27,300 nucleotides of DNA from a virus (Duplodnaviria > Caudoviricetes). Below the pieces are notes generated by a model. That model was not told the DNA's origin and ran no database searches. It saw nothing but the letters and a program-made list of their open reading frames with translations. The position numbers and the translations under genes were made by a program. Positions 1 to 14,558 of the stretch are shown one piece after another (position 1 is the first letter of the stretch; every line of letters begins with the position of its first letter). The stretch covers positions 1 to 27,300 of IMG/VR virus record IMGVR_UViG_3300020045_008364; one strand, 5' to 3'.

Positions 1-119
1 ATATACCTACGTTGTGATTGGTCTAATGACTTAACAGCTTCAAGATTTCTCTTGTGCCATTTATCGTAATCCCACATTACATGAAACTCGGTACCGTAAT
101 CAATTACTCTTAAACTCAT
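1..119 (-). CDS. Partial CDS (N-terminus only; runs off the window edge), unknown function
   Basis: ATG at 119 overlaps the TGA of 116..328 (ATGA); frame is open to the edge: MSLRVIDYGTEFHVMWDYDKWHKR... Confidence 0.55.
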   Translation of the reverse strand, partial: MSLRVIDYGTEFHVMWDYDKWHKRNLEAVKSLDQSQRRY

Positions 120-328
120 TCTTCAATAATTATTTTATGTTTTTCAATCCATTCATCTGCTTTTTGTTCCCAGACCTTTTTATTTCTTAGAGAAGCAGAA
201 CCATATTCTTGACTCCAAATTTTTGTATATTCACGTAAACCAGTGAGTATATAAGCTAATTCTTTCAACTCTTTTTTAAGAGCTTCTTCATTATCAGCAT
301 CTATGTGTATGTGAAATTTTTTACTCAT
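116..328 (-). CDS. Hypothetical phage protein (70 aa)
   Basis: ORF overlaps both neighbours within the minus-strand operon. Confidence 0.7.
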   Translation of the reverse strand: MSKKFHIHIDADNEEALKKELKELAYILTGLREYTKIWSQEYGSASLRNKKVWEQKADEWIEKHKIIIEE

Positions 329-2918
329 ATTCTACCTCTTCTTTTGTTTTTATACAGTCAAACAAAGTAGGTGTATTCATTTTATGGTAAGCAGCATTTA
401 CATAAAATACACCATCTTTAAAATAGCTACTATTCAATTCAGTTGATATACTTTTTCTACCCATTTGCATAGCCATGTATGGAGTAGAAAATAAACCACC
501 AAATGGATCATCTACCAATTCCCCTGGCATGGTAAACCAATCAATTAACCTCTTAATAATATCAAGTTGAAGTGGGCAAATGTGTGTTTCTTTCTTACTG
601 CTTACCTGCTTTGTGTTAAGTGTATTCATTCGGTTAACATCGCTCCAAACTGTATCATCATTTGAGTGTAGTGGTAAGGTGGTGTAAAGCCTACTTAACT
701 TACCAGCTTGTTCTAATTCCCTACAAGCCTGTACATGCTGTTCGTAATTATAGCCTTCTTTTAATCTTTCCTTCCACAACTTTTGCAAGTAACTTAAATC
801 ATACTTTTTAATCTCATCAAAAGAAAGTAATCGATTGCCATCGCTCCGGTGGTAGCTACTGGCATTTACTTGATGTGTAGCCAAATCATATTCCTCCTTA
901 TCCTTTGTAACTGGTTCATCTGCATAGGAATTATTGTTATGGCTTGGAGCTTTGCGGAAAATCAAAATATATTCAGGCGAACCTACACCGTTCCTTGTAG
1001 CATCTTTACGCTGCTCTTTCCATGTAAGCCTATTGGTTTGATTGTTCTCGGCAACTACATCTGTAGTTACTGTTATTTTACCAGTTAAGTAAAACCCATG
1101 CTTTATAAAGTGAGCTACAGTTTGACCGCTAAAATCATCAACAGTTGTAAACTTAGTACCGTTTTGATAACTGTACCTAATTCTATCTTTTACATGAATA
1201 GCAGCTATACGACCTGGCTTTAATGTTCTTAAAAGATGTGGTGTTAAGTAATCCATCTGTACAAAAAACTTATCATTACCGTGGTTGTGCCCAAAGTCGT
1301 TGTAATAAGGCGTGTATTCGTAATGATTTGCAAACGGTATTGATGTAATACCTAAGTGAATTGAGTTATCAGGCATTGACATCGTTTCAGGGATCGCGTC
1401 TGTATTAATAGCTGTAAATAATTTGCCTTTTTCTTCAAATCTTTCATTCATAATACTGCGTTTTAGTTTTTCCATTGTATTTGTATTTGACAATCCATTT
1501 TCTTTGATGATTTTAATCATTTCACCAACAAGGTGGTCATGTTGTTTCCATTTTTTTTGCAATGTTTTTAATATCTCCTGTTCTGATTCGGCATATATAA
1601 TGTGAATTTCACATTCAAACTCCTGCTGAAACCTGTAAATTCTATGTATTGCCTGAATAAATGCGTTAAACTCATAACCGATACCTAGAAAAATTGCTTT
1701 ATGGCAGAAATATTGAAAGTTACAACCCTGGCCACTTATTTCTGGCTTTGTTGCCATATATTGTATTTTTCCATCTGCAAAATCAACAATATTACGCTCC
1801 CTGATATCCATGTCTTGAGTTCCAAAGACTTCAACTGAGTTATATTTATTCTTTGGAATTTCTTGCATTATTGCGTGTCGTTCTTTTTCTAAGTCGTGCC
1901 AAATAATGTAATTCGAATCCGGATCTGCATCAATTATTGATTTCATTTCCAGAATTCTTGAATCAAGACTGTCACGTTTTTCCCTTGAAGCATCTTTAAG
2001 TCCTAAAGCTGATTCCCGAAACATTTTAACCTGTCCGTCTTGGTCTAACCCTGCTGTTTTGTGGTCTACTTTTACCTTGTGGTATATTATTTTCAAAGGA
2101 GGTAAGTCGTAACCAGTATCATCATATCTTAAATCAGAAGGCTTTGTAATGAATAATGCCCAGGTTGACATCCACAACCAAAATTCTTTTTCCTTGTGTG
2201 GGTATATTGTAAGATTGTTTGCCTGAGTTGAATCTCTCTTAAAGAACCGTGTTAAAGCTTGTCCGGTGTCCATTATTTCCAAGTATCCGGCATAATGAAT
2301 GAGTTCCTTGTATTTGTTAGGCGAAGGTGTCGCTGTGCAAACAAATTTATATTTTACCCCTTTGAATTTGTCCAAGAATGTTTGATAAGTTTTAGAGCCG
2401 TATGACCTTAAAACTGAGGCTTCATCTAAACTCGTAACTATGAAGTATTTCGGGTTTATATTACCGTCCCTTACGCGTTCGTAATTAGTTATCAAAATAC
2501 TACCGTCGGGAGCACTCTCACATTCTGCCTGAGTTTTAACGTAAATCAAATCAATACCTAATTTACGTTTTGCATCCTTAAAAAATTCTTGACGAACTCC
2601 CAAAGGACAAACAATTAAAGCCTTATATTCCCTATATGGTTGAGGTTCTATTTCAGGATCTAAATCATATGTTTTTTCCTGTTCTAAAATATTTTTACAA
2701 ATTAAAAGTTGTTGAATTGTCTTTCCAAGTCCAAAACTCTCAAATAATGCTCTCCTACCCCCTTTTATAGCCCAATTTATCGCGTCCCTTTGATGAGGCT
2801 TTAAAACAGTACCATCTAAAAATTCAGGTAAACCTACATCAAATATGAATCCTGTCTCAGGAGCTATGCAGACCTTTGATAGTAAAAAATCATTATATTC
2901 TTCTTTTTTTGTACTCAT
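321..2918 (-). CDS. SNF2/SF2-type helicase fused to an N6-adenine/N4-cytosine DNA methyltransferase
   Basis: N-terminal Q motif LKPHQ, GLGKT, LDEAS, TATP and QAIHRIYRFQQ helicase motifs; C-terminal TSIPF (SPPY-like motif IV), HICPLQ and DPFGG (SAM-binding motif I), in beta-class order. Confidence 0.85.
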   Translation of the reverse strand: MSTKKEEYNDFLLSKVCIAPETGFIFDVGLPEFLDGTVLKPHQRDAINWAIKGGRRALFESFGLGKTIQQLLICKNILEQEKTYDLDPEIEPQPYREYKALIVCPLGVRQEFFKDAKRKLGIDLIYVKTQAECESAPDGSILITNYERVRDGNINPKYFIVTSLDEASVLRSYGSKTYQTFLDKFKGVKYKFVCTATPSPNKYKELIHYAGYLEIMDTGQALTRFFKRDSTQANNLTIYPHKEKEFWLWMSTWALFITKPSDLRYDDTGYDLPPLKIIYHKVKVDHKTAGLDQDGQVKMFRESALGLKDASREKRDSLDSRILEMKSIIDADPDSNYIIWHDLEKERHAIMQEIPKNKYNSVEVFGTQDMDIRERNIVDFADGKIQYMATKPEISGQGCNFQYFCHKAIFLGIGYEFNAFIQAIHRIYRFQQEFECEIHIIYAESEQEILKTLQKKWKQHDHLVGEMIKIIKENGLSNTNTMEKLKRSIMNERFEEKGKLFTAINTDAIPETMSMPDNSIHLGITSIPFANHYEYTPYYNDFGHNHGNDKFFVQMDYLTPHLLRTLKPGRIAAIHVKDRIRYSYQNGTKFTTVDDFSGQTVAHFIKHGFYLTGKITVTTDVVAENNQTNRLTWKEQRKDATRNGVGSPEYILIFRKAPSHNNNSYADEPVTKDKEEYDLATHQVNASSYHRSDGNRLLSFDEIKKYDLSYLQKLWKERLKEGYNYEQHVQACRELEQAGKLSRLYTTLPLHSNDDTVWSDVNRMNTLNTKQVSSKKETHICPLQLDIIKRLIDWFTMPGELVDDPFGGLFSTPYMAMQMGRKSISTELNSSYFKDGVFYVNAAYHKMNTPTLFDCIKTKEEVEYE

Positions 2919-3547
2919 CTTTTAATTCTTTGGTTAATTATTCTACTTACTGTTGATGCATGTACTCCAACTTGCAACGCAATTTCTTTTTGTTGCATGC
3001 CTTGCAAATGCAATTCTTTTACTTTTTTAATAAATATTTCTCTCTCTGATGCGTTATTTATTATTTCCATATTTGCATCAATAGGAATCTTAATTGCATT
3101 GCGTTGCAATGTGTTTTGCAATGGCTCTGCAATTTCTTGCTTTTCCTGATTCTCTGGCTTAACATAAAAGTAAAATATAATTGCTAGGAAAAGGTAAAAA
3201 CCATAATAAAACCCGGATATTGCAAGCCAGATATCACCATGCAATGGATAACACAATAACGCAATTCCTATTAGTTCCATGCTTGCAACGCTTATTGCAA
3301 ACTTCCAGAACTTCGTATCATTGCGCTGCAAAATATCCATGATTGCGACAATTGCAATTGCAAAAGTCAAACCGAAAATATAAGGAACATACACTTTTGC
3401 ATCGAAACCGTTTTGCAATACAAAGAGATTTTTAAAGTATTTGTCCGCAAGGAATAAAGGCAATAAGGAGTAGGCAAATGCAGTATGCAATATAAAAAGT
3501 GTGATTGCAATGCAGCTAAGTCCGAAATAATACAAGAATTTCCTCAT
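2915..3547 (-). CDS. Multi-pass membrane protein with C-terminal helix-turn-helix
   Basis: About four hydrophobic segments in aa 1-130; C-terminal GMQQKEIALQVGVHASTVSRII is a typical HTH. Confidence 0.75.
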   Translation of the reverse strand: MRKFLYYFGLSCIAITLFILHTAFAYSLLPLFLADKYFKNLFVLQNGFDAKVYVPYIFGLTFAIAIVAIMDILQRNDTKFWKFAISVASMELIGIALLCYPLHGDIWLAISGFYYGFYLFLAIIFYFYVKPENQEKQEIAEPLQNTLQRNAIKIPIDANMEIINNASEREIFIKKVKELHLQGMQQKEIALQVGVHASTVSRIINQRIKR

Positions 3548-3667
3548 TACTTTCTTATTTTAAGGATATGCAATTCTTCTGTTTTTCCGCGTCTGAATAT
3601 CCTGAATGAATATGATTCAGTTGTTGCAATAATTGTTTTTCCGAAATCAATTGCAGCTTTGTGCAAT
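2955..3667. repeat. Dispersed cluster of the palindrome TGCA/TTGCAA
   Basis: Hand count of about 27 TGCA, 12 of them TTGCAA, in about 710 bp, versus about 3 TGCA in the preceding 700 bp. Confidence 0.75.
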
Positions 3668-3699
3668 TCTGGATAGGTGTCGTATTCGATTGTTGTCAT
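3547..3699 (-). CDS. Small hypothetical protein (50 aa), absent from the ORF track
   Basis: MTTIEYDTYPELHKAAIDFGK...KIRK*; exactly fills the gap, with ATGA and TAATG overlaps. Confidence 0.65.
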   Translation of the reverse strand: MTTIEYDTYPELHKAAIDFGKTIIATTESYSFRIFRRGKTEELHILKIRK

Positions 3700-4427
3700 A
3701 ATTCGTTGTATAAGTTAATTTTCATTCCTTTTTCTGCGATAAATACTTCTTTACCTGTTTCCTCTTGAATTCTGCGCTTAAAAAACTTGCTATCAGAATT
3801 CGAGTCGCTTACATGGATAAGGATAATTTTATTCGTATATCTCAAATCGTTCGCTTTAAACATATCAATAAGCGTTTCTAAGCTCATATGATTCTCTTTA
3901 ATGCGTCTCATTAAACTAATGTCTAATTTGCCATTCATTACCCTATTTTCAAGTAGTTCTTCTGAGTGATTGCATTCGACTATCCAATGATTCACGTTTG
4001 AGAAAGTGAAAGGTGAATAATTTGTATCACTCATAAAAATGATATTTCCGGTGTCTGGATGAGTAATTTGAAACCCCTGGCAAATAACATCATGAACCAA
4101 TAGAAAAGAGTTTATAATGAATTCATGAATCATAAAATTTTTCAAAGGCTCAATTTTTACTGCAAATGGATTCCAAAAATTTAGTTCATCCCAGGTTAAT
4201 TTATGCGAATAGCACTTTATCGCTACTGATGTATAATCAGATATGTACTTTGAGTGATCTTTGTGTGAATGACTCAGCAATAAGCCTTTTACTTTCCTTG
4301 TATGATAATTCATAGCCTTTTTAGCCTCAAGAAAACTAATACCAGCGTCAATAATTAACGCGGTATTAGAATTCTGTAAAATATAAGAATTACCTGATGA
4401 CCCGGTTCCTAATATCGTTAATTCCAT
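3696..4427 (-). CDS. Metallo-beta-lactamase-fold hydrolase (YycJ-like nuclease)
   Basis: GTGSSGN, IDAG, HSHKDH (HxHxDH), HD, SDT, ECNH, later H motifs; this family commonly neighbours phage recT. Confidence 0.9.
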   Translation of the reverse strand: MELTILGTGSSGNSYILQNSNTALIIDAGISFLEAKKAMNYHTRKVKGLLLSHSHKDHSKYISDYTSVAIKCYSHKLTWDELNFWNPFAVKIEPLKNFMIHEFIINSFLLVHDVICQGFQITHPDTGNIIFMSDTNYSPFTFSNVNHWIVECNHSEELLENRVMNGKLDISLMRRIKENHMSLETLIDMFKANDLRYTNKIILIHVSDSNSDSKFFKRRIQEETGKEVFIAEKGMKINLYNEL

Positions 4428-4606
4428 TATTGAATAACTATAATTGCTATTTCTGAAGAATCATCATTTGAATCTCCTGCTTCAGTTATTTCAACTTGAG
4501 AAATCATTCGGTATTCGGAGAACATGCTTTCTGAATCAATCGGAGTGTAAACATAAAAATCCCCTTCGATTTCATTCAATTTACTAATAAGTTCAGATTT
4601 TAACAT
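4427..4606 (-). CDS. Small acidic hypothetical protein (59 aa), absent from the ORF track
   Basis: MLKSELISKLNEIEGDFYV...IVIQ*; fills the gap, TAATG overlap with the MBL gene. Confidence 0.65.
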   Translation of the reverse strand: MLKSELISKLNEIEGDFYVYTPIDSESMFSEYRMISQVEITEAGDSNDDSSEIAIIVIQ

Positions 4607-4610
4607 GATA

Positions 4611-5660
4611 TTAAAAATTTGGCGTTTCTGGTATATCTTTTGTTTCTTCCGCTTTCTTTGTTTTCCCGTTCTCTTTTTTAACAGGTTCAGGCTTTGCGGC
4701 TTCTTTTGTTTCCGGAGCGTTTGATTTTATTTCGTTAGGGGGCAGTTGTTTTGCAGCTTCTTCAAGTGATATTGAATTCTGAGTACTGCTTTGAATCGCT
4801 TCTGGGTTTCTTTTATTTTCCTCAGCTTCAAGTTCGATTAATTTCATGAACCCGTCATCAATTTTTGATGAGTCAATTGTAATTGAATTATAAGCGGCCC
4901 GGTAAATTGTTTTATAACACATCTCTTTGTACCAGCCTTCAACTTTTTCAGTCCCGACTTTCTTTCCATCTTTGTAAACCGGTTTCACTCCTCCCCAAAA
5001 TTCCGGTGATGCGTATTCCGGTTTACGTTTTTCAATTTCTTCTTTTGTAAATATCACTAACCTGTTTTTTTCAGGATGTTCCCTGAATACATGGTAATAA
5101 AAGCCTCCTTTTAATTCCCCCCTATCAAAACTGTCTTTTACTTCAAATTCGTATGATTCAACGTTATTCTTCGTACTTTTTTTAATTTCCCTAAAAGTAT
5201 CGTTTTTGAAAACCAAATCAACAATCACCTGGTCGGGAATATCAAGGCCGTATTTTGTTGCCTTGATCTCAATCCCTCTATAGCCAATAATGAAGGTAAT
5301 GTCGTACTTATTTGTTTTGTTGTTTTTAAAAGGTATTGTATTGATGTGGTTTGGCTGCATAGGGTCTAATCCTACGCGCGCGTATGTTACTACATCATTT
5401 GCCAGTTTTTGCAGGTTGATATTATCCCAGACTATCGGCAAGTCATCCCGTTTTTTTTCATCCTTGCTGAGTCTCTTTACTTCTGAAATCTTTAAGACTG
5501 AATCGATATGGATGAAATAGTTCTGGCAAAGCCTCTTATGAAAGTCTGCCATTTCTGGAGTCTTAATTGCACTGACTCCGAATTCTTTCAAAACCAAATC
5601 AGTAAAACGACTTGAGTAACTTGGTTTTTGTACTGCTAATTCTTTGTTTGTGTTTTCCAT
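4611..5660 (-). CDS. recT: RecT/Redbeta-family ssDNA-annealing recombinase
   Basis: GLDP...IPF...IGYRG, V...D.F, and WYKEMCYKTIYR motifs; charged disordered tail ending PNF; context with SbcC-like ATPase and MBL. Confidence 0.8.
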   Translation of the reverse strand: MENTNKELAVQKPSYSSRFTDLVLKEFGVSAIKTPEMADFHKRLCQNYFIHIDSVLKISEVKRLSKDEKKRDDLPIVWDNINLQKLANDVVTYARVGLDPMQPNHINTIPFKNNKTNKYDITFIIGYRGIEIKATKYGLDIPDQVIVDLVFKNDTFREIKKSTKNNVESYEFEVKDSFDRGELKGGFYYHVFREHPEKNRLVIFTKEEIEKRKPEYASPEFWGGVKPVYKDGKKVGTEKVEGWYKEMCYKTIYRAAYNSITIDSSKIDDGFMKLIELEAEENKRNPEAIQSSTQNSISLEEAAKQLPPNEIKSNAPETKEAAKPEPVKKENGKTKKAEETKDIPETPNF

Positions 5661-5666
5661 GATTGT

Positions 5667-5849
5667 TTAAGATTTATGTTTTAATTCTTGTTTAAGAGCT
5701 TGTAAATTTTCTTCGATGTAAACTCCGACTTCTTTTGTGTACTTCTTTTCATCCCAGAGCCACAACAAATACGCGGCGGGAACATTTACCATCTTTCGGC
5801 CTTTATAAACCCCGAATGTCATTTTGGAGTTGTTGTCTAGTTCAGGCAT
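5667..5849 (-). CDS. Small DUF3820-like protein
   Basis: MTFGVYKG...VPAAYLLWL matches the MPFGKYKG...P..YL.W pattern. Confidence 0.7.
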   Translation of the reverse strand: MPELDNNSKMTFGVYKGRKMVNVPAAYLLWLWDEKKYTKEVGVYIEENLQALKQELKHKS

Positions 5850-6114
5850 TTTCTTGTTTTAAAAGTTCGTCGGCAAAATCATAAGCATTAATTATAAGAG
5901 CTTGTCCAAAAGCAATCTCTTTTTCATTAGCTTCGCGTTCTAATGCTGAAGTCAATATTTCTGAAGATAACAACCCCTGCATCGCAGCGCAAGCAGCATA
6001 AAAGCGTTTTGACATTCCAATAGGTTCGTGACCTCTACCAACAATAGTACTAAACGCCTGCGAATCTACCGGAAACGCTGGTTCCTGTCCTAATTTATTG
6101 CTCATCATGTTCAA
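5842..6114 (-). CDS. Conserved small phage protein
   Basis: PAFP...GMSKRFYAACAAMQGLL...AYDFADELL resembles the widespread GMTLRDYFAAKAMQG phage family. Confidence 0.7.
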   Translation of the reverse strand: MNMMSNKLGQEPAFPVDSQAFSTIVGRGHEPIGMSKRFYAACAAMQGLLSSEILTSALEREANEKEIAFGQALIINAYDFADELLKQENA

Positions 6115-8056
6115 TTTTAAGTGTCATTTGCCCTTCTTTTTTAAATAGCCGTATTACTTGAGTGTTCATCTCAAGTGGGTAAGAGATAGATTCGGCATTA
6201 TCAATGAAACAAGGAGCTTGGATATCAAAATGTTCGCTTAAAACATTAATGATATCTAACCCGGCATTGATTCTACCTGCATAGTTAGCGGAATTGTAAG
6301 GAACTCCATTGATGAGGGTAATGCAGGTTTCTTCTTGCCCTCCGTTCATGAGCTGATTATACATTTTGAATTGCACATACTTAAATTTAGCGTTTATATG
6401 CGATTCTATGAGGCTTATCTTCTTTTCAGTGAATTGCTCGATTGTGAATATTTGACGTTCTAAATCGGCAATTTTCTGCCCTTTGTCGCGTATTTCTGAT
6501 TCTATCTCTGCAATGCGATTATAAGAAGTTGCGATTAGTTCTTCATTTCTGAGTTGATTTTTAAACTCATCGATTTCATCAATCAATCTAAATTTCTTTA
6601 ACAGCAAATCATTATCGCTTTCAGGAGTTACCGCTTCAGGGATGAGACTCTTTTTTTCTTCGAATTGCTTTAACAGTGATTGGTATTCTTGATTCTCAAA
6701 AAGTGTGGTTTCAATTGATTTAGGAATTTGATTACATTTTTCAGTCAATTCTTGTATTTCAGATTCAAGTAATAAAATATTTTCCTTTTGGGAATCAATT
6801 TGGCTATTTAAACCATCGTTCAGCCGTTTTAATGTTGTAATTTTTTCTTTGAAAGATTCGGCTTTCTTTTCAATTTCCTTAATATCTGATACTTTTTGTT
6901 GATTAAAATTGAGCTTTAAGGTATCAATTATTCCTTCGTAATTATCCAGCGTCCTGCTGCATGTCGGGCAGATTGTTTTCGAAGCATCAAGTTTGAACTC
7001 ATTGTCACGAATTTGATACCATTCCGTGCGCAATAGGGCTATTTTTGATTCAATGCTTGATATTTCAATGTTATTTGCTTCCAAGTCTTTTGAATAGTTC
7101 CTGATTCGGTCTTTAACCATTTCAATTGATAATTTCTTAGATTCTATTGATTGCAATTCATTTCTTCCAAGCGAATCGATTTCTGCCTGTAATTTTGCTT
7201 TTAAATCATCAAGTTTATTTTTAAGCAATAACAGTTCTTTCTTTTGCTCCTGGACCTGCTGATTTTTTGCCTCAAATGCTTTCATGTTTGAATTAATCTG
7301 AGATTCGATCTCAAACAACATGCTTTCAGCTCCTTTTTGTTGCTTGCGAATAGAATCAAAGTCGATTTGTTGAGGCATAGATGACTTCTGTTCGTCAATC
7401 CTTGGAGGTAATAATTTGATTTCATCATTCATTTTACGGACCATAACAGATAGGTTTTTTTTCATTTCCTGTATGTCTTTTCCGTTAAATTCCTGGATTA
7501 AAGCCTCAAAATCAGGATTGCCATTAGCTATTTCTATGTCCGATTTTATGGGACAAATATCAAAAAGAATTTTTCTTTTGATAATCCAGTTTTGTGATTC
7601 AAAATAAGTCGGGTCGGTGCAATATCTGAACTTTTCGATGGATGAAATCGAATCAACAAATACATCATAGTTTTTTTTCGGGATTGCTATTCCCTCCATG
7701 TAATAAGTGGTTTCGTGTCCGGTTAATTCTGCTTCAAGTTCACCTTTTTTCTTTGTCCATTTTTCTTTAAAAACTTTCATCATAATTGTTTGTCTGCCAT
7801 TGATTTCAAACCAACCCTCAACTTCAACATCCAGATTGTGAAGAAAATCATTTGTAGTTTTATCAATTGGTTTAATGGCAAAATCTGCTTTATCTTCTGA
7901 GTCTTTGCCGAATAATAGCCAGGTGAATGCATCAAGAATTCTGGTTTTACCGGCTGCATTTTCACCGTAGATTATAGTTTTGTTGCTTAATTGAATTTCA
8001 AGTAGTCCTGAGCCTTTGAAATTCTTTAATCTGAGTTTAGATAAATGAATTTTCAT
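6095..8056 (-). CDS. SbcC/Rad50 (SMC-like) ATPase
   Basis: LKNFKG, Walker A GENAAGKT, long coiled coil with central CPTC zinc hook, Walker B FIDNAE. Confidence 0.9.
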   Translation of the reverse strand: MKIHLSKLRLKNFKGSGLLEIQLSNKTIIYGENAAGKTRILDAFTWLLFGKDSEDKADFAIKPIDKTTNDFLHNLDVEVEGWFEINGRQTIMMKVFKEKWTKKKGELEAELTGHETTYYMEGIAIPKKNYDVFVDSISSIEKFRYCTDPTYFESQNWIIKRKILFDICPIKSDIEIANGNPDFEALIQEFNGKDIQEMKKNLSVMVRKMNDEIKLLPPRIDEQKSSMPQQIDFDSIRKQQKGAESMLFEIESQINSNMKAFEAKNQQVQEQKKELLLLKNKLDDLKAKLQAEIDSLGRNELQSIESKKLSIEMVKDRIRNYSKDLEANNIEISSIESKIALLRTEWYQIRDNEFKLDASKTICPTCSRTLDNYEGIIDTLKLNFNQQKVSDIKEIEKKAESFKEKITTLKRLNDGLNSQIDSQKENILLLESEIQELTEKCNQIPKSIETTLFENQEYQSLLKQFEEKKSLIPEAVTPESDNDLLLKKFRLIDEIDEFKNQLRNEELIATSYNRIAEIESEIRDKGQKIADLERQIFTIEQFTEKKISLIESHINAKFKYVQFKMYNQLMNGGQEETCITLINGVPYNSANYAGRINAGLDIINVLSEHFDIQAPCFIDNAESISYPLEMNTQVIRLFKKEGQMTLKIEHDEQ

Positions 8057-8886
8057 ATTGTAATATTATTTATTGGTGATTGTATTTTGCTTATCAAATT
8101 ATCGCTTAGATGGCAATAAATCATGGTAGTTTTAACGTTATTGTGGCCTGCTATCTTTTGAATGAGGTTTATGTCCGTCCCTTGCTCTACCATGTGCGTG
8201 AATGTGCAATGTCGAATAAGATGCGTATAAACACGTTTTGAAATGCCTGCTTTACTTGCGAGTTGTTTCATTATTTGAAGAACGCTAGTAGTAGAATATT
8301 TCAGGCTAAATTGGCCATTTAAAACATATACTTCTGAATGTTCCTTACGATAATAGTTTTCAAGTAATGGAATTATAGTATCAGGTAAAGCTATCTGCCT
8401 ATCCTTATTACCCTTTGCAGCAATTATATTTATAATTTTACGGCTCCGGTCAATATGAATCCATTTCAAATTTATTAATTCAGAAACACGTAATCCGCAC
8501 GAATAAATGAGTGCTATAATTACTTTATGTTTAATGTTTGAGCAAACATCGAACATCCGCTGTATTTCATCCCGACTAAGAACAATCGGAAGTTTTTTTG
8601 ATTGTTTTGGATATTCAACTTTATTAAGTTTATTCGGTTGGTTACCAATTTTATCGTAAAATAATTTTATCGCAGATAAGTAAGATTTATGTGTATTGGG
8701 TTGTTGGAATTGGGTAAGAAACCGTTTTATTTTATCAGCTGAAATTTCGGAGGGTTTGGTAGCTTCTGATTCAAAATATTGTAAAAATTTACCAATGCAT
8801 GAAACATAATTTTTGATACTTTCCGGAGAATACCGTTTGTATTTCATCCAGTCGGAAAGTTGACGCTGATAGTTTCCGATATTCAT
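8053..8886 (-). CDS. Tyrosine recombinase (XerD/IntI-like), putative cassette integrase
   Basis: N-terminal SAM-like domain (YS..SIKNY), KKLPIVLS, YSCGLRVSE (R), KGNKDR (K), HLIRH, GHNNVKTTMIY (H, Y); all catalytic residues present; lies beside the cassette array. Confidence 0.92.
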   Translation of the reverse strand: MNIGNYQRQLSDWMKYKRYSPESIKNYVSCIGKFLQYFESEATKPSEISADKIKRFLTQFQQPNTHKSYLSAIKLFYDKIGNQPNKLNKVEYPKQSKKLPIVLSRDEIQRMFDVCSNIKHKVIIALIYSCGLRVSELINLKWIHIDRSRKIINIIAAKGNKDRQIALPDTIIPLLENYYRKEHSEVYVLNGQFSLKYSTTSVLQIMKQLASKAGISKRVYTHLIRHCTFTHMVEQGTDINLIQKIAGHNNVKTTMIYCHLSDNLISKIQSPINNITI

Positions 8887-8889
8887 TTT

Positions 8890-8944
8890 TTAATTAGTTA
8901 AATAATAAATAGTTATAAATGTTAAATACATATAATAGTTATAG
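8890..8944 (+). other. attI-like site; predicted crossover G|TT at 8938-8940
   Basis: Non-hairpin AT-rich segment upstream of the integrase; AATAGTTATA repeated at 8908 and 8934, TAGTTA three times; 8938-8952 pairs with the end of cassette 1. Confidence 0.65.
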
Positions 8945-8948
8945 CCAA

Positions 8949-9254
8949 TTAAAAAATCGGGTCAAAGTGAGTTGGTGGTTTATAATTAGCCTTATCTTTT
9001 TTAGGTGGTTGTAATTCGATTGGAAGAAATTCTCCATATTCCTGAATCATTCTGTATTTCAAAATGTGACTACATTCATTCTCAACTTTAAAATCCTTAC
9101 AAAACATATTCCAATGAACTCCACGGCTCAGCCCTTTATTTGCTTTGCTCGCTTTTGTCCAATCTTTTACACCTACTTTTGCTTTCTCCAACATATCAGA
9201 AATTTGAATGTTTGTTATTTTGTGAGAAAGCTCTTTTGCGAATCTATCATTCAT
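8949..9254 (-). CDS. Cassette 1 hypothetical protein (101 aa)
   Basis: Single ORF filling the space between GTTATAGCC (8938) and GGCTATAAC (9281). Confidence 0.75.
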   Translation of the reverse strand: MNDRFAKELSHKITNIQISDMLEKAKVGVKDWTKASKANKGLSRGVHWNMFCKDFKVENECSHILKYRMIQEYGEFLPIELQPPKKDKANYKPPTHFDPIF

Positions 9255-9274
9255 AGTTTTAAAAAATTAACTGG

Positions 9275-9402
9275 CTATAACACAGCATAAAATTAATGCG
9301 GGTATAGTGCCAAATTGTAACTGCTTCCTTTTATCAAGTTTTTAGCGTGGGATAGGTTCGCAGCTTTGAAATCCCACACTAATCTTATGCTCACCGTTAG
9401 CA
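9275..9402 (+). repeat. attC-like site 1 (128 bp)
   Basis: CTATAAC; arm AGCATAAAATTAATGCGGG (9284-9302) pairs with CCCACACTAATCTTATGCT (9373-9391); then CACC-GTTAGCA. Confidence 0.85.
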
Positions 9403-9810
9403 CCCATTCGAAAGACGCAGCAGCACATCGGCATGGCACGGCTTATTTAATGAGCAAAAACATGATAGATTTTTACCTTTAAGAATTGAATAATCTGGAA
9501 TTTTTGGTAACCAATTAGGTAATTTACCAGTAATCCATTGTTCGTATAATTCAACAATGTCATTAATTGTGAACCCACCCGAAACACTCCAATAACACCA
9601 GGGATCACCTACTATCTTATTTGGTTTAAAATATAATATCCAATCATCAGGAGTTAATTTAAACGGATTGCCAAACTTTGTCGGTCTGCCAACATAAATA
9701 GTATTTTCAGGTGTTTTATATCCTTTAGCCCTCGAACGCTGAAAACGAACGGGTGCTAACACACGGTTAGCGCAATTGCCGTTTTTGTGGGTATTTGAAG
9801 TTTCTGCCAT
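9397..9810 (-). CDS. Cassette 2 DUF4326-family protein
   Basis: YVGRPTKFGNPF and LKGKNLSCFC...PCHADVL motifs; starts inside attC2 and stops at the TAA within the GTTA core. Confidence 0.85.
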   Translation of the reverse strand: MAETSNTHKNGNCANRVLAPVRFQRSRAKGYKTPENTIYVGRPTKFGNPFKLTPDDWILYFKPNKIVGDPWCYWSVSGGFTINDIVELYEQWITGKLPNWLPKIPDYSILKGKNLSCFCSLNKPCHADVLLRLSNGC

Positions 9811-9883
9811 TTTATTAAGTTATTTATAGTTTGATAATTAAGTGCTATTTAGTCGGCAACTTCGCCAACCGTCAACGTTAGCC
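9754..9883 (+). repeat. attC-like site 2 (130 bp)
   Basis: TGCTAAC; arm ACGGTTAGCGCAATTGCCG (9763-9781) pairs with CGGCAACTTCGCCAACCGT (9854-9872); then CAAC-GTTAGCC. Confidence 0.85.
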
Positions 9884-9889
9884 ACAATA

Positions 9890-10414
9890 CTACGAGCGTA
9901 CCATCTTTGACAGTTGTTCTGTAATATCAATTTCTAATTCTATTTTTTGAGATATATTCATTTCTTCACAGATAATGTATGCTGGTAAATTAAACAGCTT
10001 GCTTTCAGCAAAAATATGAACACCATCTCTAAGTGGGGTGTCTAATCGACCATCTCTGAAATGCGATTTAAAAGTTCCATCACCACCATTTGATGTTGTT
10101 TGTGAAATTGGAATAAACAGCATTGTGTCATTATGTGTTTCAGCATAATGTTTGTAAACAATGCCGTAATGCCAAAGAACATTATACCAATTGTCGTCAC
10201 CTCTCCAATTTTTTACACGCTTAAATCTCATTTCTAAACGTGGTACTGGTAGTTTTTTCTGCAATTCACTTTCTTTAAAATATTCGTGCATTTGATACTC
10301 TAATTTTTGTAAATCAGAGTTTTTTTCGAGAGCTTCAATTTTTTCTTGCAACTCTTCAATTTTTGTTTCTTTTTCTTCAATTGTTTCGTTCAATCTTTCT
10401 TCTAATGTTTTCAT
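9890..10414 (-). CDS. Cassette 3 hypothetical protein with N-terminal coiled coil (174 aa)
   Basis: Single ORF between GTTAGCCAC (9877) and GTGGCTAAC (10460). Confidence 0.75.
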   Translation of the reverse strand: MKTLEERLNETIEEKETKIEELQEKIEALEKNSDLQKLEYQMHEYFKESELQKKLPVPRLEMRFKRVKNWRGDDNWYNVLWHYGIVYKHYAETHNDTMLFIPISQTTSNGGDGTFKSHFRDGRLDTPLRDGVHIFAESKLFNLPAYIICEEMNISQKIELEIDITEQLSKMVRS

Positions 10415-10453
10415 AATAATATGATTTTAAAATAATTACTAAATAAGTACTGT

Positions 10454-10581
10454 GGCTAACAATGTGTATAATTAATTGGGGTTGCAGTGCTGTTTTCAGT
10501 GTTCTACCTCGCCAGTAGTTCAGTATATTTTGATAGGGAGTGCCACGTAATCCCCAACTAATCATACACGAACCGTTACCG
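10454..10581 (+). repeat. attC-like site 3 (128 bp)
   Basis: GGCTAAC; arm GTGTATAATTAATTGGGG (10464-10481) pairs with CCCCAACTAATCATACAC (10552-10569); then GAACC-GTTACCG. Confidence 0.85.
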
Positions 10582-11316
10582 GTAATGCTCCAGCACTCCG
10601 ATCAATTGTTTTCCTATATAATTAGTAAAGGCTGGTGGAATTGCCTGAGATAATTCGGCTTGCCCCATCCAATCAATATCCATGCTTTTTGAAACAAAAT
10701 CAACGCCTGAAAAATGACCGGTGGCGGCCGCATAATGCTTGTTTTCATCAGGTTTTCTGCCATGTTTTACAACTCGTTTCATGTGCTGGCATCTCATTTC
10801 CCAAGGGTTAATATTTATTGTCCAGTTTGTTTCAAAAAGTCTGTGCCTTATAATATTTAAACCAAACATAGTTCCGCATAACATAAATGGTTTATTAAGC
10901 GGTGCGCCTGGTACATTTTCAATTATAAAAAGCTTGCCTGTTTTTATTAGCAAATCTCTCAATTCTCCAATTTGGTCAGGCCAATTTTCATTAGTTCCGG
11001 CAGTTTTAGTAATTGAACTATATCTTTTACAAATAGGCCCAGCATGTATAGCGTCGAATTGACTTATAAAATCAATATCTTTTAAAGCATTGAAGAAATC
11101 ACCTTTTATAAATTCCATGTAATTTGGAAATTTTGGCTGCTCTTCAATGTCTAACCCAGTCACTTTAAACCCTGCATCATAATAGCCTTTAGAACTTCCA
11201 CCAGCCTTACACCCACAGTCCAGCAAACGAAAAGCACTACCGGTAACATGCGGTAATACGCAAACCGGGGTTTCGTTCTCGTTGGATAAGGTATTTATGT
11301 GCAAAATTTCGTTCAT
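10576..11316 (-). CDS. Cassette 4 short C5-cytosine DNA methyltransferase-like protein
   Basis: LLDCGCKAGG (motif I-like), GLDI, HAGPIC (PC motif variant), IIENVPGA (ENV), LCGTMFGL, RHRLFE, QAIPPAFT (motif X-like). Confidence 0.75.
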   Translation of the reverse strand: MNEILHINTLSNENETPVCVLPHVTGSAFRLLDCGCKAGGSSKGYYDAGFKVTGLDIEEQPKFPNYMEFIKGDFFNALKDIDFISQFDAIHAGPICKRYSSITKTAGTNENWPDQIGELRDLLIKTGKLFIIENVPGAPLNKPFMLCGTMFGLNIIRHRLFETNWTININPWEMRCQHMKRVVKHGRKPDENKHYAAATGHFSGVDFVSKSMDIDWMGQAELSQAIPPAFTNYIGKQLIGVLEHYR

Positions 11317-11371
11317 CGTATAAAGTTTTTCTGTAATTAATCCCGGTCAGCGCATACCGCCAACGTTAGGC
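11241..11371 (+). repeat. attC-like site 4 (131 bp)
   Basis: CGGTAAC; arm GCGGTAATACGCAAACCGGG (11250-11269) pairs with CCCGGTCAGCGCATACCGC (11342-11360) with one extra base; then CAAC-GTTAGGC. Confidence 0.85.
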
Positions 11372-11557
11372 AACATAAAGAGACCAGCCGTCATTTAGAT
11401 AGTCTTTTCCTTTTGCCCACTCATCTGCGAAGATTTTACAACCATCTTCAAAAATGATTTTATTGCCTTGCATTGTCAAATACTCATATTTTGTAAAGTA
11501 TTGGTGTGTAACCTTAATACCTTTCCTTGCTTGTTCTTTTGCTTCCTCAAATGTCAT
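11366..11557 (-). CDS. Cassette 5 small phage protein (63 aa), weak DUF2829/Tad2-like N-terminus
   Basis: MTFEEA...GIKV...GW pattern; stop is the TAA of the GTTA core. Confidence 0.65.
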   Translation of the reverse strand: MTFEEAKEQARKGIKVTHQYFTKYEYLTMQGNKIIFEDGCKIFADEWAKGKDYLNDGWSLYVA

Positions 11558-11575
11558 AGTTTAAAAATTTACGTT

Positions 11576-11643
11576 GCCTAACACTAAATATAAAATATAC
11601 GGGTGTTAGTGCGTGTTTGATCGGTATTACCTTTAATTAAGTG
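11576..11643 (+). repeat. Truncated attC-like site 5 (left half only)
   Basis: GCCTAAC-A followed by ATAAAATATACGGG...TAGTGC resembling the left arm of attC1; no complementary right arm found. Confidence 0.6.
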
Positions 11644-11645
11644 TC

Positions 11646-11740
11646 GTGTAACACGTGCTATACGTCAGTTTTGCATTAACCTTTTCGGTAACTTGACAAT
11701 TACTACAAGCAAAACCGAACGCATAGCACCACCGTTTTAT
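11646..11740 (+). repeat. Terminal, shorter attC-like site 6
   Basis: GTGTAAC; arm GTGCTATACGTCAGTTTTGC (11655-11674) pairs with GCAAAACCGAACGCATAGCAC (11709-11729); CACC-GTT at 11734 abuts the stop of the HTH gene. Confidence 0.75.
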
Positions 11741-11967
11741 AATCCGCAAATATCATCCGCCGTACATTTAAGTTCTCGGCAAATTATAACCATAGCCTCC
11801 TGACTTAGTGTTTTTGTTTTACCTGTATACAGATTCTTTAAATTTTCTGTTTTTGTTCGCTTTGAACTTTCTGCCCACAGTTTTTCAGATAATCCGTTTT
11901 CAATTTCTTTAATTAATACGCCTTCCTTGATGGCCTTTAATTTAACTAATTCTTTTATATTAAACAT
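11737..11967 (-). CDS. Cro/C1-type HTH regulator
   Basis: 76 aa; NLYTGKTKTLS...IICRELKCTADDI is a typical XRE-family C-terminus; lies near the start of the early operon. Confidence 0.7.
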   Translation of the reverse strand: MFNIKELVKLKAIKEGVLIKEIENGLSEKLWAESSKRTKTENLKNLYTGKTKTLSQEAMVIICRELKCTADDICGL

Positions 11968-12091
11968 TTTTAAAAATTTTATTATATCCTTCTATCAATT
12001 CTCTATTTTTTAAAATGATTCTATCGCATTCGTTCAGTGTACGCTTGCTAGTTTCTATCATTTTTTTAATATTGTTTATACGAGTAATCAT
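11960..12091 (-). CDS. Possible 43-aa protein
   Basis: MITRINNIKKMIETSKR...FLKNV*; begins just downstream of the putative promoter and overlaps the HTH gene start. Confidence 0.45.
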   Translation of the reverse strand: MITRINNIKKMIETSKRTLNECDRIILKNRELIEGYNKIFKNV

Positions 12092-12109
12092 AAACGTTTT
12101 TTATATATT

Positions 12110-12150
12110 ATACTACAAATCTACAAAAATGTTTTGTTATTATGCTAAAA
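12110..12150 (-). promoter_or_regulatory. Bacteroidota primary-sigma promoter for the early operon
   Basis: Minus strand TAGATTTG at 12123-12116 matches the -7 consensus TAnnTTTG; an imperfect -33 (TTAG) lies about 21 bp upstream; intergenic position after a terminator. Confidence 0.6.
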
Positions 12151-12180
12151 TTTATAGATTATTTTTTAAAATTTATATAA

Positions 12181-12220
12181 ACAAAAAAGCCTGAAAATAA
12201 TTCCAGGCTTTTAATTTTTT
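12181..12220 (-). terminator. Rho-independent terminator ending the late operon
   Basis: Minus strand AAAAGCCTGGAA-ttat-TTTCAGGCTTTTTTGTTT just after the stop of 12222..12593; T-tracts on both strands. Confidence 0.8.
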
Positions 12221-12221
12221 A

Positions 12222-12593
12222 TTAGGCGGACCTTCGTTTCATCTCAACTGCAATCAGGTCGACAAACAAATCCGCTATTTTACGGGCGATCCGTTGCTCA
12301 TCCGTCTCATCAACATTTTTAATGTCAATGATATAATTTAAGGCATCTGTAGCCCTCTGAGCAGCTTCATTGTACTTTCCTTGCAAAGCCAAATCACCGG
12401 CTTCCCTAAGAGGGATTTTTACAGTATCAACAATCTCATCAGCAACGTTATTGTCCAGTACCGGTACAAGCACCTGAATGGCCAAATCACTAGCACCTTC
12501 AACGATGGCGTTTTTAGGATTAATCAAACGATCTAACCCTTCAACTACAACTTCTTCAAGTTGTTTACTTAATAAACCTTTTTCTTCACTCAT
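12222..12593 (-). CDS. Hypothetical protein (123 aa)
   Basis: Last ORF before the terminator. Confidence 0.75.
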   Translation of the reverse strand: MSEEKGLLSKQLEEVVVEGLDRLINPKNAIVEGASDLAIQVLVPVLDNNVADEIVDTVKIPLREAGDLALQGKYNEAAQRATDALNYIIDIKNVDETDEQRIARKIADLFVDLIAVEMKRRSA

Positions 12594-12610
12594 TTTTTTA
12601 AATTTAGTTA

Positions 12611-12880
12611 TTATTTTTTCTTGTAACCTCCATCAACAGGAAGTTTTGAAATTCCTAAAGCTGTTAACCCTAATGATAACAAATTTACCCCAATGGCAGC
12701 TAATCCAACCGGCATGGTGGCGGGGAAGAACACACAAGCTAATTTTATTACAAGTCCTATCCCGGCTGCACCTAAACCAACTTTTTGAATCGGTTTAAAA
12801 TAATCAGGACTGGGTTGTTGTAACCTTTGAACTGTTTCAGTTTGCTGGATTTTCGAAACTAAGTTTTTAATCGTTTTCAT
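12611..12880 (-). CDS. Putative holin (two TM segments)
   Basis: SPDYFKPIQKVGL followed by two hydrophobic helices and a basic C-terminus; end of the late operon. Confidence 0.6.
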   Translation of the reverse strand: MKTIKNLVSKIQQTETVQRLQQPSPDYFKPIQKVGLGAAGIGLVIKLACVFFPATMPVGLAAIGVNLLSLGLTALGISKLPVDGGYKKK

Positions 12881-13296
12881 TATATTTTTATTTTATGAAA
12901 TAAGTCAATCAATGTATTAATGACTGAAGAACCTACAACCACCCCAGCCACTATCCAGCCAATATATTTCAATATTTGAAGAGTGATAGAGGTATTTTTT
13001 AAATCCGGGTTTCTGGATAAAAATCGTTCCTTTTCAGTTGTATCCTCCAAATTCTTCACTTTCCTCTCAACCTCCATAATAGGACAATTATAATGACGTT
13101 CTTTTAAAATCTTTAAATCCTGTTTCATTTCTGAGTGTGAATTTAAAGCCTTAGCAACCTCACCCTCAAGGAAAGTTTTGTTTTCCTTGAGTTTAGTATC
13201 AATCCTTTGCATATCCTGTGTATGGGTTGAAATAAAAGCCCCCAACTGTCCTTCCAATCTACCCACAATTAATTCGATGTTTTCCATTGTTGTCAT
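12880..13296 (-). CDS. Coiled-coil protein with C-terminal TM segment (lysis-module associated)
   Basis: Hydrophobic C-terminal IGWIVAGVVVGSSVI; coupled to the holin-like gene. Confidence 0.6.
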   Translation of the reverse strand: MTTMENIELIVGRLEGQLGAFISTHTQDMQRIDTKLKENKTFLEGEVAKALNSHSEMKQDLKILKERHYNCPIMEVERKVKNLEDTTEKERFLSRNPDLKNTSITLQILKYIGWIVAGVVVGSSVINTLIDLFHKIKI

Positions 13297-13349
13297 TTTA
13301 GGTAATAATATAATGGTTGGATGAATAAATATAGTAAAAATTTTTCGTA

Positions 13350-14558
13350 TTATTTGGGAACTATTTGAATTTCATATCTATCCTTGGATATACATGAGTT
13401 CAAATAATCTTTCAAAAGTTTAGCCACCCCAACAGTATCATATTTGATTTGTTTATATTCCACTGTATCATAATATGGAATTGTATCATAATAGGGAATT
13501 GGTTCAGTAATTGTACCGGACGCAGGGTCAATCCGGTTTACAGAATATGCTGGAATTTTACTGTAGAAATTAAATACAGTAGCTAATGAAGGATTTGTGT
13601 AAAAAATATTATTATAAATGGAATCACCCACAGCGGAACCCCATAGATATTTAATACCCCCATTTGTGAAGGTATTATCATATATTACATTATGCCAAGC
13701 ATCATTCAGATATATACATTCTGATTGTCCAATAAAATCATTTCCGAAAGCCTTTAAATAACACGGTTTTGCGTCACGTTCATAGATGGCGTTAGCTCCG
13801 TTTATGAATATGTTATTATATATTAAAAATTTGTTTTTAGGTTTTAAATACATCCCTGAATTTGACAATTCCCCCACTCGGCTTTTCCTTGCTATTACTA
13901 CGTTATCATGATAATCAAGAGTACCCATCACATAATCATTGGAACCTACGATTGTACAAAATTTATGAACTGAAGTGGAATGATCCATTAAACAATGATG
14001 AATATGAATATTATTTTGCCGATAGGCAAGTTGAATACAATCCCCTCCACCTTCGGCCTGCCACATATTTGGATTTGTAAACGAGCTATATGAAATATCC
14101 CAATCATTTGTATTTTGACCGTAAATATTATCATCATAAGTACTATCTATAGAACAATACTTAATTATTATTTTTGAATTAAATCCTTGGAAAGCCCTGA
14201 TGCCCCACTTTGTTTTTTTTATTTTGCAATTTAAAATTGAAACGGTTCCGGAGTCTGAAATATAAATGCCTGTTGTAGTTGTTAATCCGGGAGCTGGTTT
14301 AATATCTAACCCTTCAATGATTACATCTCTGGTTCCGTATATTCTAAGCACGTGAGAATCAGCGTTACCTATCCAAATTATTTTCTGAGCAGGAATATAG
14401 TCGTAATCGTTTCTTACTATCAAGCTTGTCGACGTGTACAAAACGTCATCAACGAAGTAATAGCTTTCAGAAATAGGTTTAAAAGTTTTCCAATCAAGTT
14501 TTTGACCGAATCCCAGCATCGGGATAATAAGCAAAATAAACAGTACATTTTTTTTCAT
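13350..14558 (-). CDS. Secreted right-handed beta-helix (pectate-lyase-fold) protein, possible depolymerase
   Basis: Signal peptide MKKNVLFILLIIPMLGFG; Asn/Ile-rich repeats (GIYI, DNIY, GDCIQL, IYNNIF, IYDNTF). Confidence 0.75.
   Translation of the reverse strand: MKKNVLFILLIIPMLGFGQKLDWKTFKPISESYYFVDDVLYTSTSLIVRNDYDYIPAQKIIWIGNADSHVLRIYGTRDVIIEGLDIKPAPGLTTTTGIYISDSGTVSILNCKIKKTKWGIRAFQGFNSKIIIKYCSIDSTYDDNIYGQNTNDWDISYSSFTNPNMWQAEGGGDCIQLAYRQNNIHIHHCLMDHSTSVHKFCTIVGSNDYVMGTLDYHDNVVIARKSRVGELSNSGMYLKPKNKFLIYNNIFINGANAIYERDAKPCYLKAFGNDFIGQSECIYLNDAWHNVIYDNTFTNGGIKYLWGSAVGDSIYNNIFYTNPSLATVFNFYSKIPAYSVNRIDPASGTITEPIPYYDTIPYYDTVEYKQIKYDTVGVAKLLKDYLNSCISKDRYEIQIVPK

Follow-up and report, generated by a model that had tools for sequence, protein, structure and literature searches.

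The phage record IMGVR_UViG_3300020045_008364 (Duplodnaviria; Caudoviricetes) carries, in the 27,300-nucleotide stretch from position 1 that is called the window here, five small minus-strand genes on the upstream side of a tyrosine recombinase gene. Each of them is accompanied by its own pair of 15-bp inverted repeats, and every pair has one mismatch, at position 11. The question raised by this locus is what the repeats delimit and why the same mismatch recurs. In the answer that we consider probable, a pair of repeats represents both ends of a mobile gene cassette, the cassettes form an integron-like array in the phage, and a fixed T·G pair marks the bottom strand for a recombinase of Xer size. 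The feature is real and general, and it sets these sites apart as a distinct class belonging to an integron-like system.

Repeat pairs in the window

The array and its recombinase comprise the following features, in which ORF stands for open reading frame and the inner wobble is a second A/G position discussed below.

8053..8886, minus strand: tyrosine recombinase, 277 aa, with Pfam/NCBIfam matches to Phage_int_SAM_4 and Phage_integrase and without the IntI insertion
8927..8940, plus strand: attI-like docking site without a hairpin, 52 nt upstream of the recombinase start; likely crossover 8938/8939
8938..9395, plus strand: cassette C1; left repeat 8938-8952 (A at 8948), right repeat 9267-9281 (C at 9271), hairpin 9282-9395, inner wobble A 9296; ORF 8949-9254 (minus), 101 aa, no family
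9396..9876, plus strand: cassette C2; left repeat 9396-9410, right repeat 9746-9760, hairpin 9761-9876, inner wobble 9775; ORF 9397-9810 (minus), DUF4326, start within its own hairpin
9877..10574, plus strand: cassette C3; left repeat 9877-9891, right repeat 10446-10460, hairpin 10461-10574, inner wobble 10475; ORF 9890-10414 (minus), 174 aa, no family
10575..11364, plus strand: cassette C4; left repeat 10575-10589, right repeat 11233-11247, hairpin 11248-11364, inner wobble 11263; ORF 10576-11316 (minus), DNA-methyltransferase-like (phrog_363, E 7e-25), start within its own hairpin
11365..11649, plus strand: cassette C5; left repeat 11365-11379, right repeat 11568-11582, followed by the first half of a hairpin only; ORF 11366-11557 (minus), 63 aa, phrog_3474
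11650..11736, plus strand: terminal hairpin site fused to the C5 half-hairpin; AAC 11650-11652, inner wobble 11667, GTT 11734-11736

The ten 15-mers, first reported in a sequence-only reading of this DNA, are confirmed: each pair matches at 14 of 15 positions, with A in the left end against G in the reverse complement of the right end at position 11, and the pairing of all five ends at position 16. These five pairs are the only ones with at least 14/15 matches within 60-2500 bp among the 651 GTT and 424 AAC sites of the window, where two unrelated GTT/AAC pairs reach 13/15. When the window was shuffled 60 times with dinucleotides preserved, no such pair arose in 50 shuffles, one in 10 and two in none. 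Pairing occurs within cassettes, as had been proposed, since the junctions as they stand match at only 5-9 of 15 positions.

A fixed wobble at position 11

Around relatives of the recombinase, 242 loci were gathered, and 99 distinct cassettes from 55 loci were selected with 5 or 6 matches at positions 4-9 as the sole criterion. The left position 11 is A in 98 of these 99. The pair at this position is A/G in 92 cassettes, 77 of them gapless and 15 with one extra base before the G, while Watson-Crick and C/T pairs are both absent (0/99). Two of the remaining seven are gapless with G at 11, and five look mispaired or decayed. The right end has G at 11 in 78 of 80 gapless pairs. Positions 12-15, which lie outside the selection, match at 3.54 of 4 sites, compared with 1.76 +/- 0.09 for shuffled partners; mutual information amounts to 0.73-1.58 bits at these positions (shuffle maxima <=0.34), is zero at 11 and falls to chance level at 16-18. 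The two ends covary at positions 4-10 and 12-15 on either side of a fixed pair. Sequencing error as the source of the mismatch is ruled out by the 55 loci and by a cultured phage described below.

The homologous arrays thus uphold a conserved bottom-strand wobble and complementarity that extends to position 15. The claim of one mismatch, always at position 11, holds for the prevailing A/G pair and is too strict in its wording, given the 15 cassettes with an extra base and a T·T mismatch at position 10 beside the wobble in 19/80 gapless pairs. The flanking bases vary (A 69, C 24 and T 6 at position 10; T 61 and G 27 at position 12). Reshuffled array junctions keep A/G in 43/55 cases, with other positions near chance, and the wobble persists there because both of its bases are fixed.

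A protein-coding effect is one conceivable source of this constancy, since position 11 is the third codon base near the stop in C2, C4 and C5; the stop codon occupies positions 2-4 in 3/5 window cassettes and makes position 11 synonymous there. Yet A at 11 is present in 18/18 such cassettes and equally in 81/82 with the stop elsewhere, and A/G is found in 34/36 cases with an ORF running through the right repeat and in 54/59 without, which leaves this explanation scarcely credible. A coding artefact and deamination in a fixed context were both rejected, because A11 and A/G are independent of stop and ORF position and the flanking bases vary.

The mobile unit and its fold

Contigs of eight public runs were aligned to positions 8000-12000. 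The left edge of C3 (9874-9876) is seen in seven runs of six studies, and the unit 9875/9876-10578, which contains the gene, the right repeat and the hairpin up to the next GTT, occurs in two contigs, from runs X2 and X6, beside foreign flanks, on both sides in X2 and on the left side in X6. Contig pieces also start at 8938-8940 and 9393-9395, and one (run X4) breaks off behind 11736. As the C3 unit carries its hairpin between other flanks, the hairpin goes with the neighbouring cassette that lies towards the recombinase, and the repeats do not form the termini of the unit. The description of the repeats as terminal therefore needs correction, since the mobile unit runs past the right repeat through a hairpin of about 115 bp. 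The crossover at GTT, by contrast, is borne out by unit boundaries in independent assemblies and in homologous arrays. A C3 homolog (87.5%; L255 836-1394 and L256 3979-4537) starts, in two phages, at the same GTT within an ordinary phage operon; it has neither the right repeat nor the hairpin and looks like a cassette fixed at a secondary site.

Closing C1-C4 into circles in silico and folding both strands, as had been suggested, lets the bottom strand form the complete outer stem of 15 bp, at -22.7 to -28.0 kcal/mol. On the top strand, this stem forms except for pair 11, at -18.6 to -26.3 kcal/mol. In these computed folds of the circle form, the bottom strand is the more stable one in 4/4 window units and in 57/57 homologous sites, by a mean of 3.6 kcal/mol in the latter. 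Array forms of the window sites reach only -14.5 to -17.5 kcal/mol.

The hairpin itself was examined in sites that were identified by the inner hairpin only, with the outer repeat and the mismatch type disregarded. Sites with at least 14/17 matches on the array strand have an arm offset of 2 (24 sites) or 3 (54 sites), while offsets 0 and 1 account for 3 and 2 sites, and the other strand yields 3-6 such sites per offset. Positions 4-9 match completely (6/6) in 39/95 pairs between consecutive sites versus 1/204 across single sites. These observations bear on the improbable alternative that recombination is of the ordinary double-stranded kind and that A11 and G11 are the preferred bases of two kinds of half-site, forming no wobble pair. 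It would suit an enzyme closest to XerA without the IntI insertion, and array junctions that fold weakly. Such a system, however, has no need for complementarity between a cassette's own ends, yet the variable positions covary strongly, and the inner arms covary too, with a one-sided offset of 2-3 nt on one strand only.

A mirror wobble in the inner arm

The wobble at position 11 has a counterpart, which the sequence-only reading missed. In 113/133 sites, base 15 or 16 of the inner arm, counted from the end of AAC, is A/G, as it is in all five complete hairpins of the window. Base profiles of left end and inner arm agree best at an offset of +4 (r 0.64, next 0.37), which places position 11 at 15. 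This mirror wobble, together with the offset, indicates that the folded site is a dyad, with two similar half-sites that enclose a lopsided spacer, and it is likely that each recombinase half-site carries one wobble. Inner-arm wobbles are A/G in 173 cases versus C/T in 5, where both types would give bottom-strand wobbles, and a second, less fixed A/G wobble is present at inner positions 10-12. A fixed extrahelical base was not found in the 133 inner arms: 71 are gapless and indels are scattered, the commonest being an extra T at 13-14 (19).

The existence of two fixed wobbles affects how the remaining explanations are judged. In the same single-strand integron-like system, the wobble might only bias fold energy towards the bottom strand without being read by a protein. 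This idea draws on classical attC sites, with 1.24 G:T pairs per folded bottom strand versus 0.39 on the top strand and no fixed position named in the part of the source concerned with these counts (Nivina 2016, PMC5027507), as well as on the greater stability of the bottom strand in every homologous site and the less fixed inner wobble. An energy bias could, however, sit anywhere and have either polarity, yet A/G outnumbers C/T by 92 to 0 at position 11, the inner arm is similarly one-sided, and the two fixed wobbles mirror each other; we regard this alternative as rather unlikely.

The mismatch might also be a relic of cassette birth, with one end copied from the other and A/G produced by a fixed editing or deamination step. 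Such an origin would explain why pairing is private to each cassette though array junctions need none, and methyltransferase cassettes such as C4 are present in some arrays. The bases around position 11 vary, and therefore no sequence-specific enzyme fits; the mirror wobble would need a separate cause, and a neutral relic should turn Watson-Crick at times, which is never seen among the 99 cassettes. A relic is accordingly very improbable. A strand mark read by the protein is the best-supported explanation of the wobble, and quite likely the correct one.

The docking site and the recombinase

In 107 distinct loci, a hairpin-less attI-like motif (consensus TACATAT-N4-GTT) precedes the recombinase start by about 52 nt, with distances of 48-55 nt in 96 of them, and the first cassettes behind it vary. 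It was not found in 12 further loci. First cassettes chosen by attI alone have A at 11 in 100/106, and several of the other six look like a wrong GTT pick. The longest ORF is on the bottom strand in 100/104 cassettes. In two loci, an identical cassette left end occurs twice per array (L008 at 9231 and 9774, L018 at 2175 and 2789), which suggests duplication by re-insertion.

R133, K158, H222, R225, H248 and Y257, the catalytic residues of this enzyme family, are invariant across 31 aligned recombinase sequences. The IntI profile TIGR02249 matches only at positions 4-179 and 243-314, below its cut-off; positions 180-242, the IntI insertion, are unmatched and appear as a gap in the alignment to IntI4 and IntI1. 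Between two anchors, this family has 59-62 residues versus 100-107 in IntI. The protein also misses the cut-offs for XerA, XerC and XerD (192.6 < 220, 153.5 < 335 and 158.2 < 330 bits). XerA is its closest relative in sequence and fold (5hxy, 4a8e), and the nearest folds to its AlphaFold model (pLDDT 84.9) are XerA and IntI4, with TM ~0.5. Of 3647 candidates, 2128 proteins belong to the family at E 1e-60 or better. In a tree of 78 of the 217 distinct proteins, whose midpoint root gives no order of events, the clade bearing the attI-like motif stands apart from archaeal proteins (support 0.997). The top five matches in named genomes comprise four from Bacteroidota (Pedobacter, Ginsengibacter, Chitinophagales, Flavobacterium) and one Saccharimonadales bin; the host of this phage is thus probably a member of the Bacteroidota.

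The system is also present in a cultured phage. Polaribacter phage Leef_1 (MT732473, L246) has a related recombinase (36%) and at least four such end pairs in an array upstream of the gene at 5992, a region annotated as hypothetical genes and an integrase only. The main text of the Leef_1 paper (PMC8776804) contains neither "cassette" nor "integron", while its supplements may bear on the point. The records of Polaribacter phages Freya_1-10 differ in genome length (44.0 to 48.9 kb), and the distance between an integrase and the record start varies with it. A literature survey, mostly of open-access main texts, found no description of this site class, and the portions of Ghaly 2021 (PMC8618304) and PMC13700133 that were consulted hold nothing on these sites.

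Comparison with known systems

Classical controls comprised 23 genes (class 1, class 2 and Shewanella), of which 15 gave clear end pairs and 8 no clear pair or candidate. Their ends pair over 7-12 bp, with 12 in aadB, aac(6')-Ib and sat2, so that the contrast drawn earlier with R boxes of about 7 bp was overstated. None of the 15 controls has A/G at position 11 (Watson-Crick 8/15, left A 11/15), and the renewed pairing at 12-15 is a further difference, which supports a site class distinct from classical attC. Classical left ends (L251, L254, L250, L245) often have C-A at positions 10-11 (9/15), like the conserved A here. The left A at 11 may be an old contact shared with classical integrons; the differences lie in the G and the renewed stem. 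One of these controls, the cultured Shewanella phage M16-3 (MZ568829, L245), carries at 60-4930 a classical integron integrase, a LexA site and several classical-ended cassettes.

The locus resembles classical integrons (VchIntIA, PDB 2a3v) in having a recombinase gene that adjoins a docking site without a hairpin and is read away from the array, in cassettes that have boundaries at GTT, a distal hairpin AAC...GTT and ends complementary beyond 7 bp, and in a bottom strand that folds more stably, with G:T pairs. It differs in that there is no IntI insertion and no fixed extrahelical base, in the fixed A/G at 11 with re-pairing at 12-15, and in genes that lie on the bottom strand and are not oriented away from attI for expression from Pc. 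The classical attC spacer has 5-6 unpaired bases per arm; the arms here are offset by 2 or 3 nt on the array strand only, within box limits that we infer. The attC site is defined by extrahelical bases (two or three, in fixed places), the spacer and the terminal structure (Nivina 2016, PMC5027507), and the insertion is described as the IntI hallmark (Smyshlyaev 2021, PMC8138268; Neron 2022, PMC9024848). The system is thus built like an integron and nevertheless falls outside the group.

XerA, XerC and XerD share with this recombinase their size, domain make-up and the best sequence and fold matches; the enzyme here differs by scoring below all Xer cut-offs, by its place in a phage beside a variable cassette array and by forming a separate clade. 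Insertion sequences and miniature inverted-repeat elements likewise have short imperfect inverted repeats around a mobile gene. The repeats here are not at the unit ends, vary between cassettes and share a GTT core, and no cassette gene matched transposase families.

A proposed mechanism and the points against it

In the proposed mechanism, the repeats of an excised cassette circle would pair into the outer stem of a single-stranded hairpin. Two recombinase protomers would flank the lopsided spacer (~6 nt versus 8-9 nt), each meeting a T ten bases from the cut. This wobble T would be paired with A in double-stranded attI and with G in the folded bottom strand, while the folded top strand would offer C opposite A. 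G·T would be the only arrangement that is paired on one strand yet different on the other, and it could thereby take the role that extrahelical bases have in classical attC, fixing the orientation of insertion. The full 15-bp stem of cognate ends would form only in the circle, so that insertion of circles would be favoured over excision. Recombination of single-stranded substrates is within the capacity of XerCD (Nivina 2016, PMC5027507).

Several observations weigh against this interpretation. The top strand of the circle likewise forms a good outer stem, and in the window the energies of the two strands differ by only 1.4-5.6 kcal/mol. In the array, outer pairs mostly have a probability < 0.4 and four junctions reach z values of only -0.2 to -1.4 versus shuffles; because of this weak folding, excision with an outer arm of about 4 bp is left unexplained. 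The left half of attI has no fixed base at the mirror position, and in 27/133 inner arms there is also a wobble in favour of the top strand. No cassette circle or exact excision joint was present in the contigs examined, where three joints with 21-base sides were not used. Additionally, the missing insertion is deemed essential for integron function by Smyshlyaev 2021 (PMC8138268).

Gene-less units form a further exception, also to the claim that the same A/G difference is always present. Eight rows (seven loci) of the 106 first units are short and gene-less, and three of them at attI have A/A (L003, 49 bp), A/A (L026, 33 bp) and A/C (L035, 76 bp) at position 11, so occupation of attI does not strictly depend on the wobble. 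Symmetric GC-rich hairpins follow L026 and L035, and L003 is truncated where its contig stops; these mini-units are possibly parasitic or inverted-duplication products. Among the other gene-less units, G at 11 is retained in L013 and L179, the case of L074 is less clear, and L051 allows both readings. The exceptions would fit an orientation role for the wobble, which a unit without a gene does not need.

Other features of the array and its setting

Gaps between the five array genes are about 50-160 bp and smaller where a gene start sits within a hairpin. The ORFs of C2 and C4 read through the right repeat, so that the site is also coding, as in 38/100 bottom-strand ORFs. The C1 protein matched no viral locus when searched. 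The stop codon of a small HTH gene marks the end of the array, and the terminal hairpin site is 82.7% like a site in L002 (fold z = -2.4). At 11583-11736, half of the C5 hairpin is joined to another hairpin exactly at AAC, by deletion or by an off-strand crossover. The idea that a sixth cassette, now lost, ended at 11640-11652 is doubtful: L047 matches 11578-11650 at 89% and continues the loop of the C5 hairpin into a full hairpin and a new cassette.

Structured Rfam motifs of Bacteroidota resemble these sites as intergenic hairpins beside small genes. Rfam gave no relevant match in the window at 7500-13500 with E up to 1, and in the homologous loci only the unrelated DUF805b, in 10 array loci at the gathering threshold. 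Flavo-1 as a candidate was not supported by these scans. The Bacteroidota -7 promoter motif (TAnnTTTG) is absent from the five junction regions and the attI region.

The virus record is linear and about 54% complete by estimate. In line with the array and the recombinase, positions 321-8056 encode an AAA protein, RecT, a metallo-beta-lactamase-fold gene and an SNF2-methylase fusion, all on the minus strand. Single-stranded DNA linked to RecT could feed hairpin folding. Between the array region and the next genes, a 22-bp inverted repeat with a 4-nt loop (12175-12222) is probably a terminator.

Significance for phages of Bacteroidota

IntegronFinder 2.0 reports a single complete integron in Bacteroidetes proper, in Salinibacter ruber M1 (Neron 2022, PMC9024848). 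On balance, we favour the wider view that phages of Bacteroidota hold a widespread second kind of integron, in which an Xer-sized recombinase without the IntI insertion would read one T·G per half-site on folded single strands instead of flipped-out bases, and in which genes stored backward would be read through by the phage operon. If this is true, single-strand cassette recombination needs no domain of the kind thought to define it. If the wobble is read by the enzyme, the system would offer a minimal model of how a simple tyrosine recombinase chooses one folded strand, with a bearing on the origin of integrons. Integron tools seek the IntI insertion and attC models, while the phage clade described here adjoins cassette arrays with another strand mark. 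The arrays reveal a pool of exchangeable phage genes, methyltransferases included, and the cultured phage Leef_1 makes the system directly testable.

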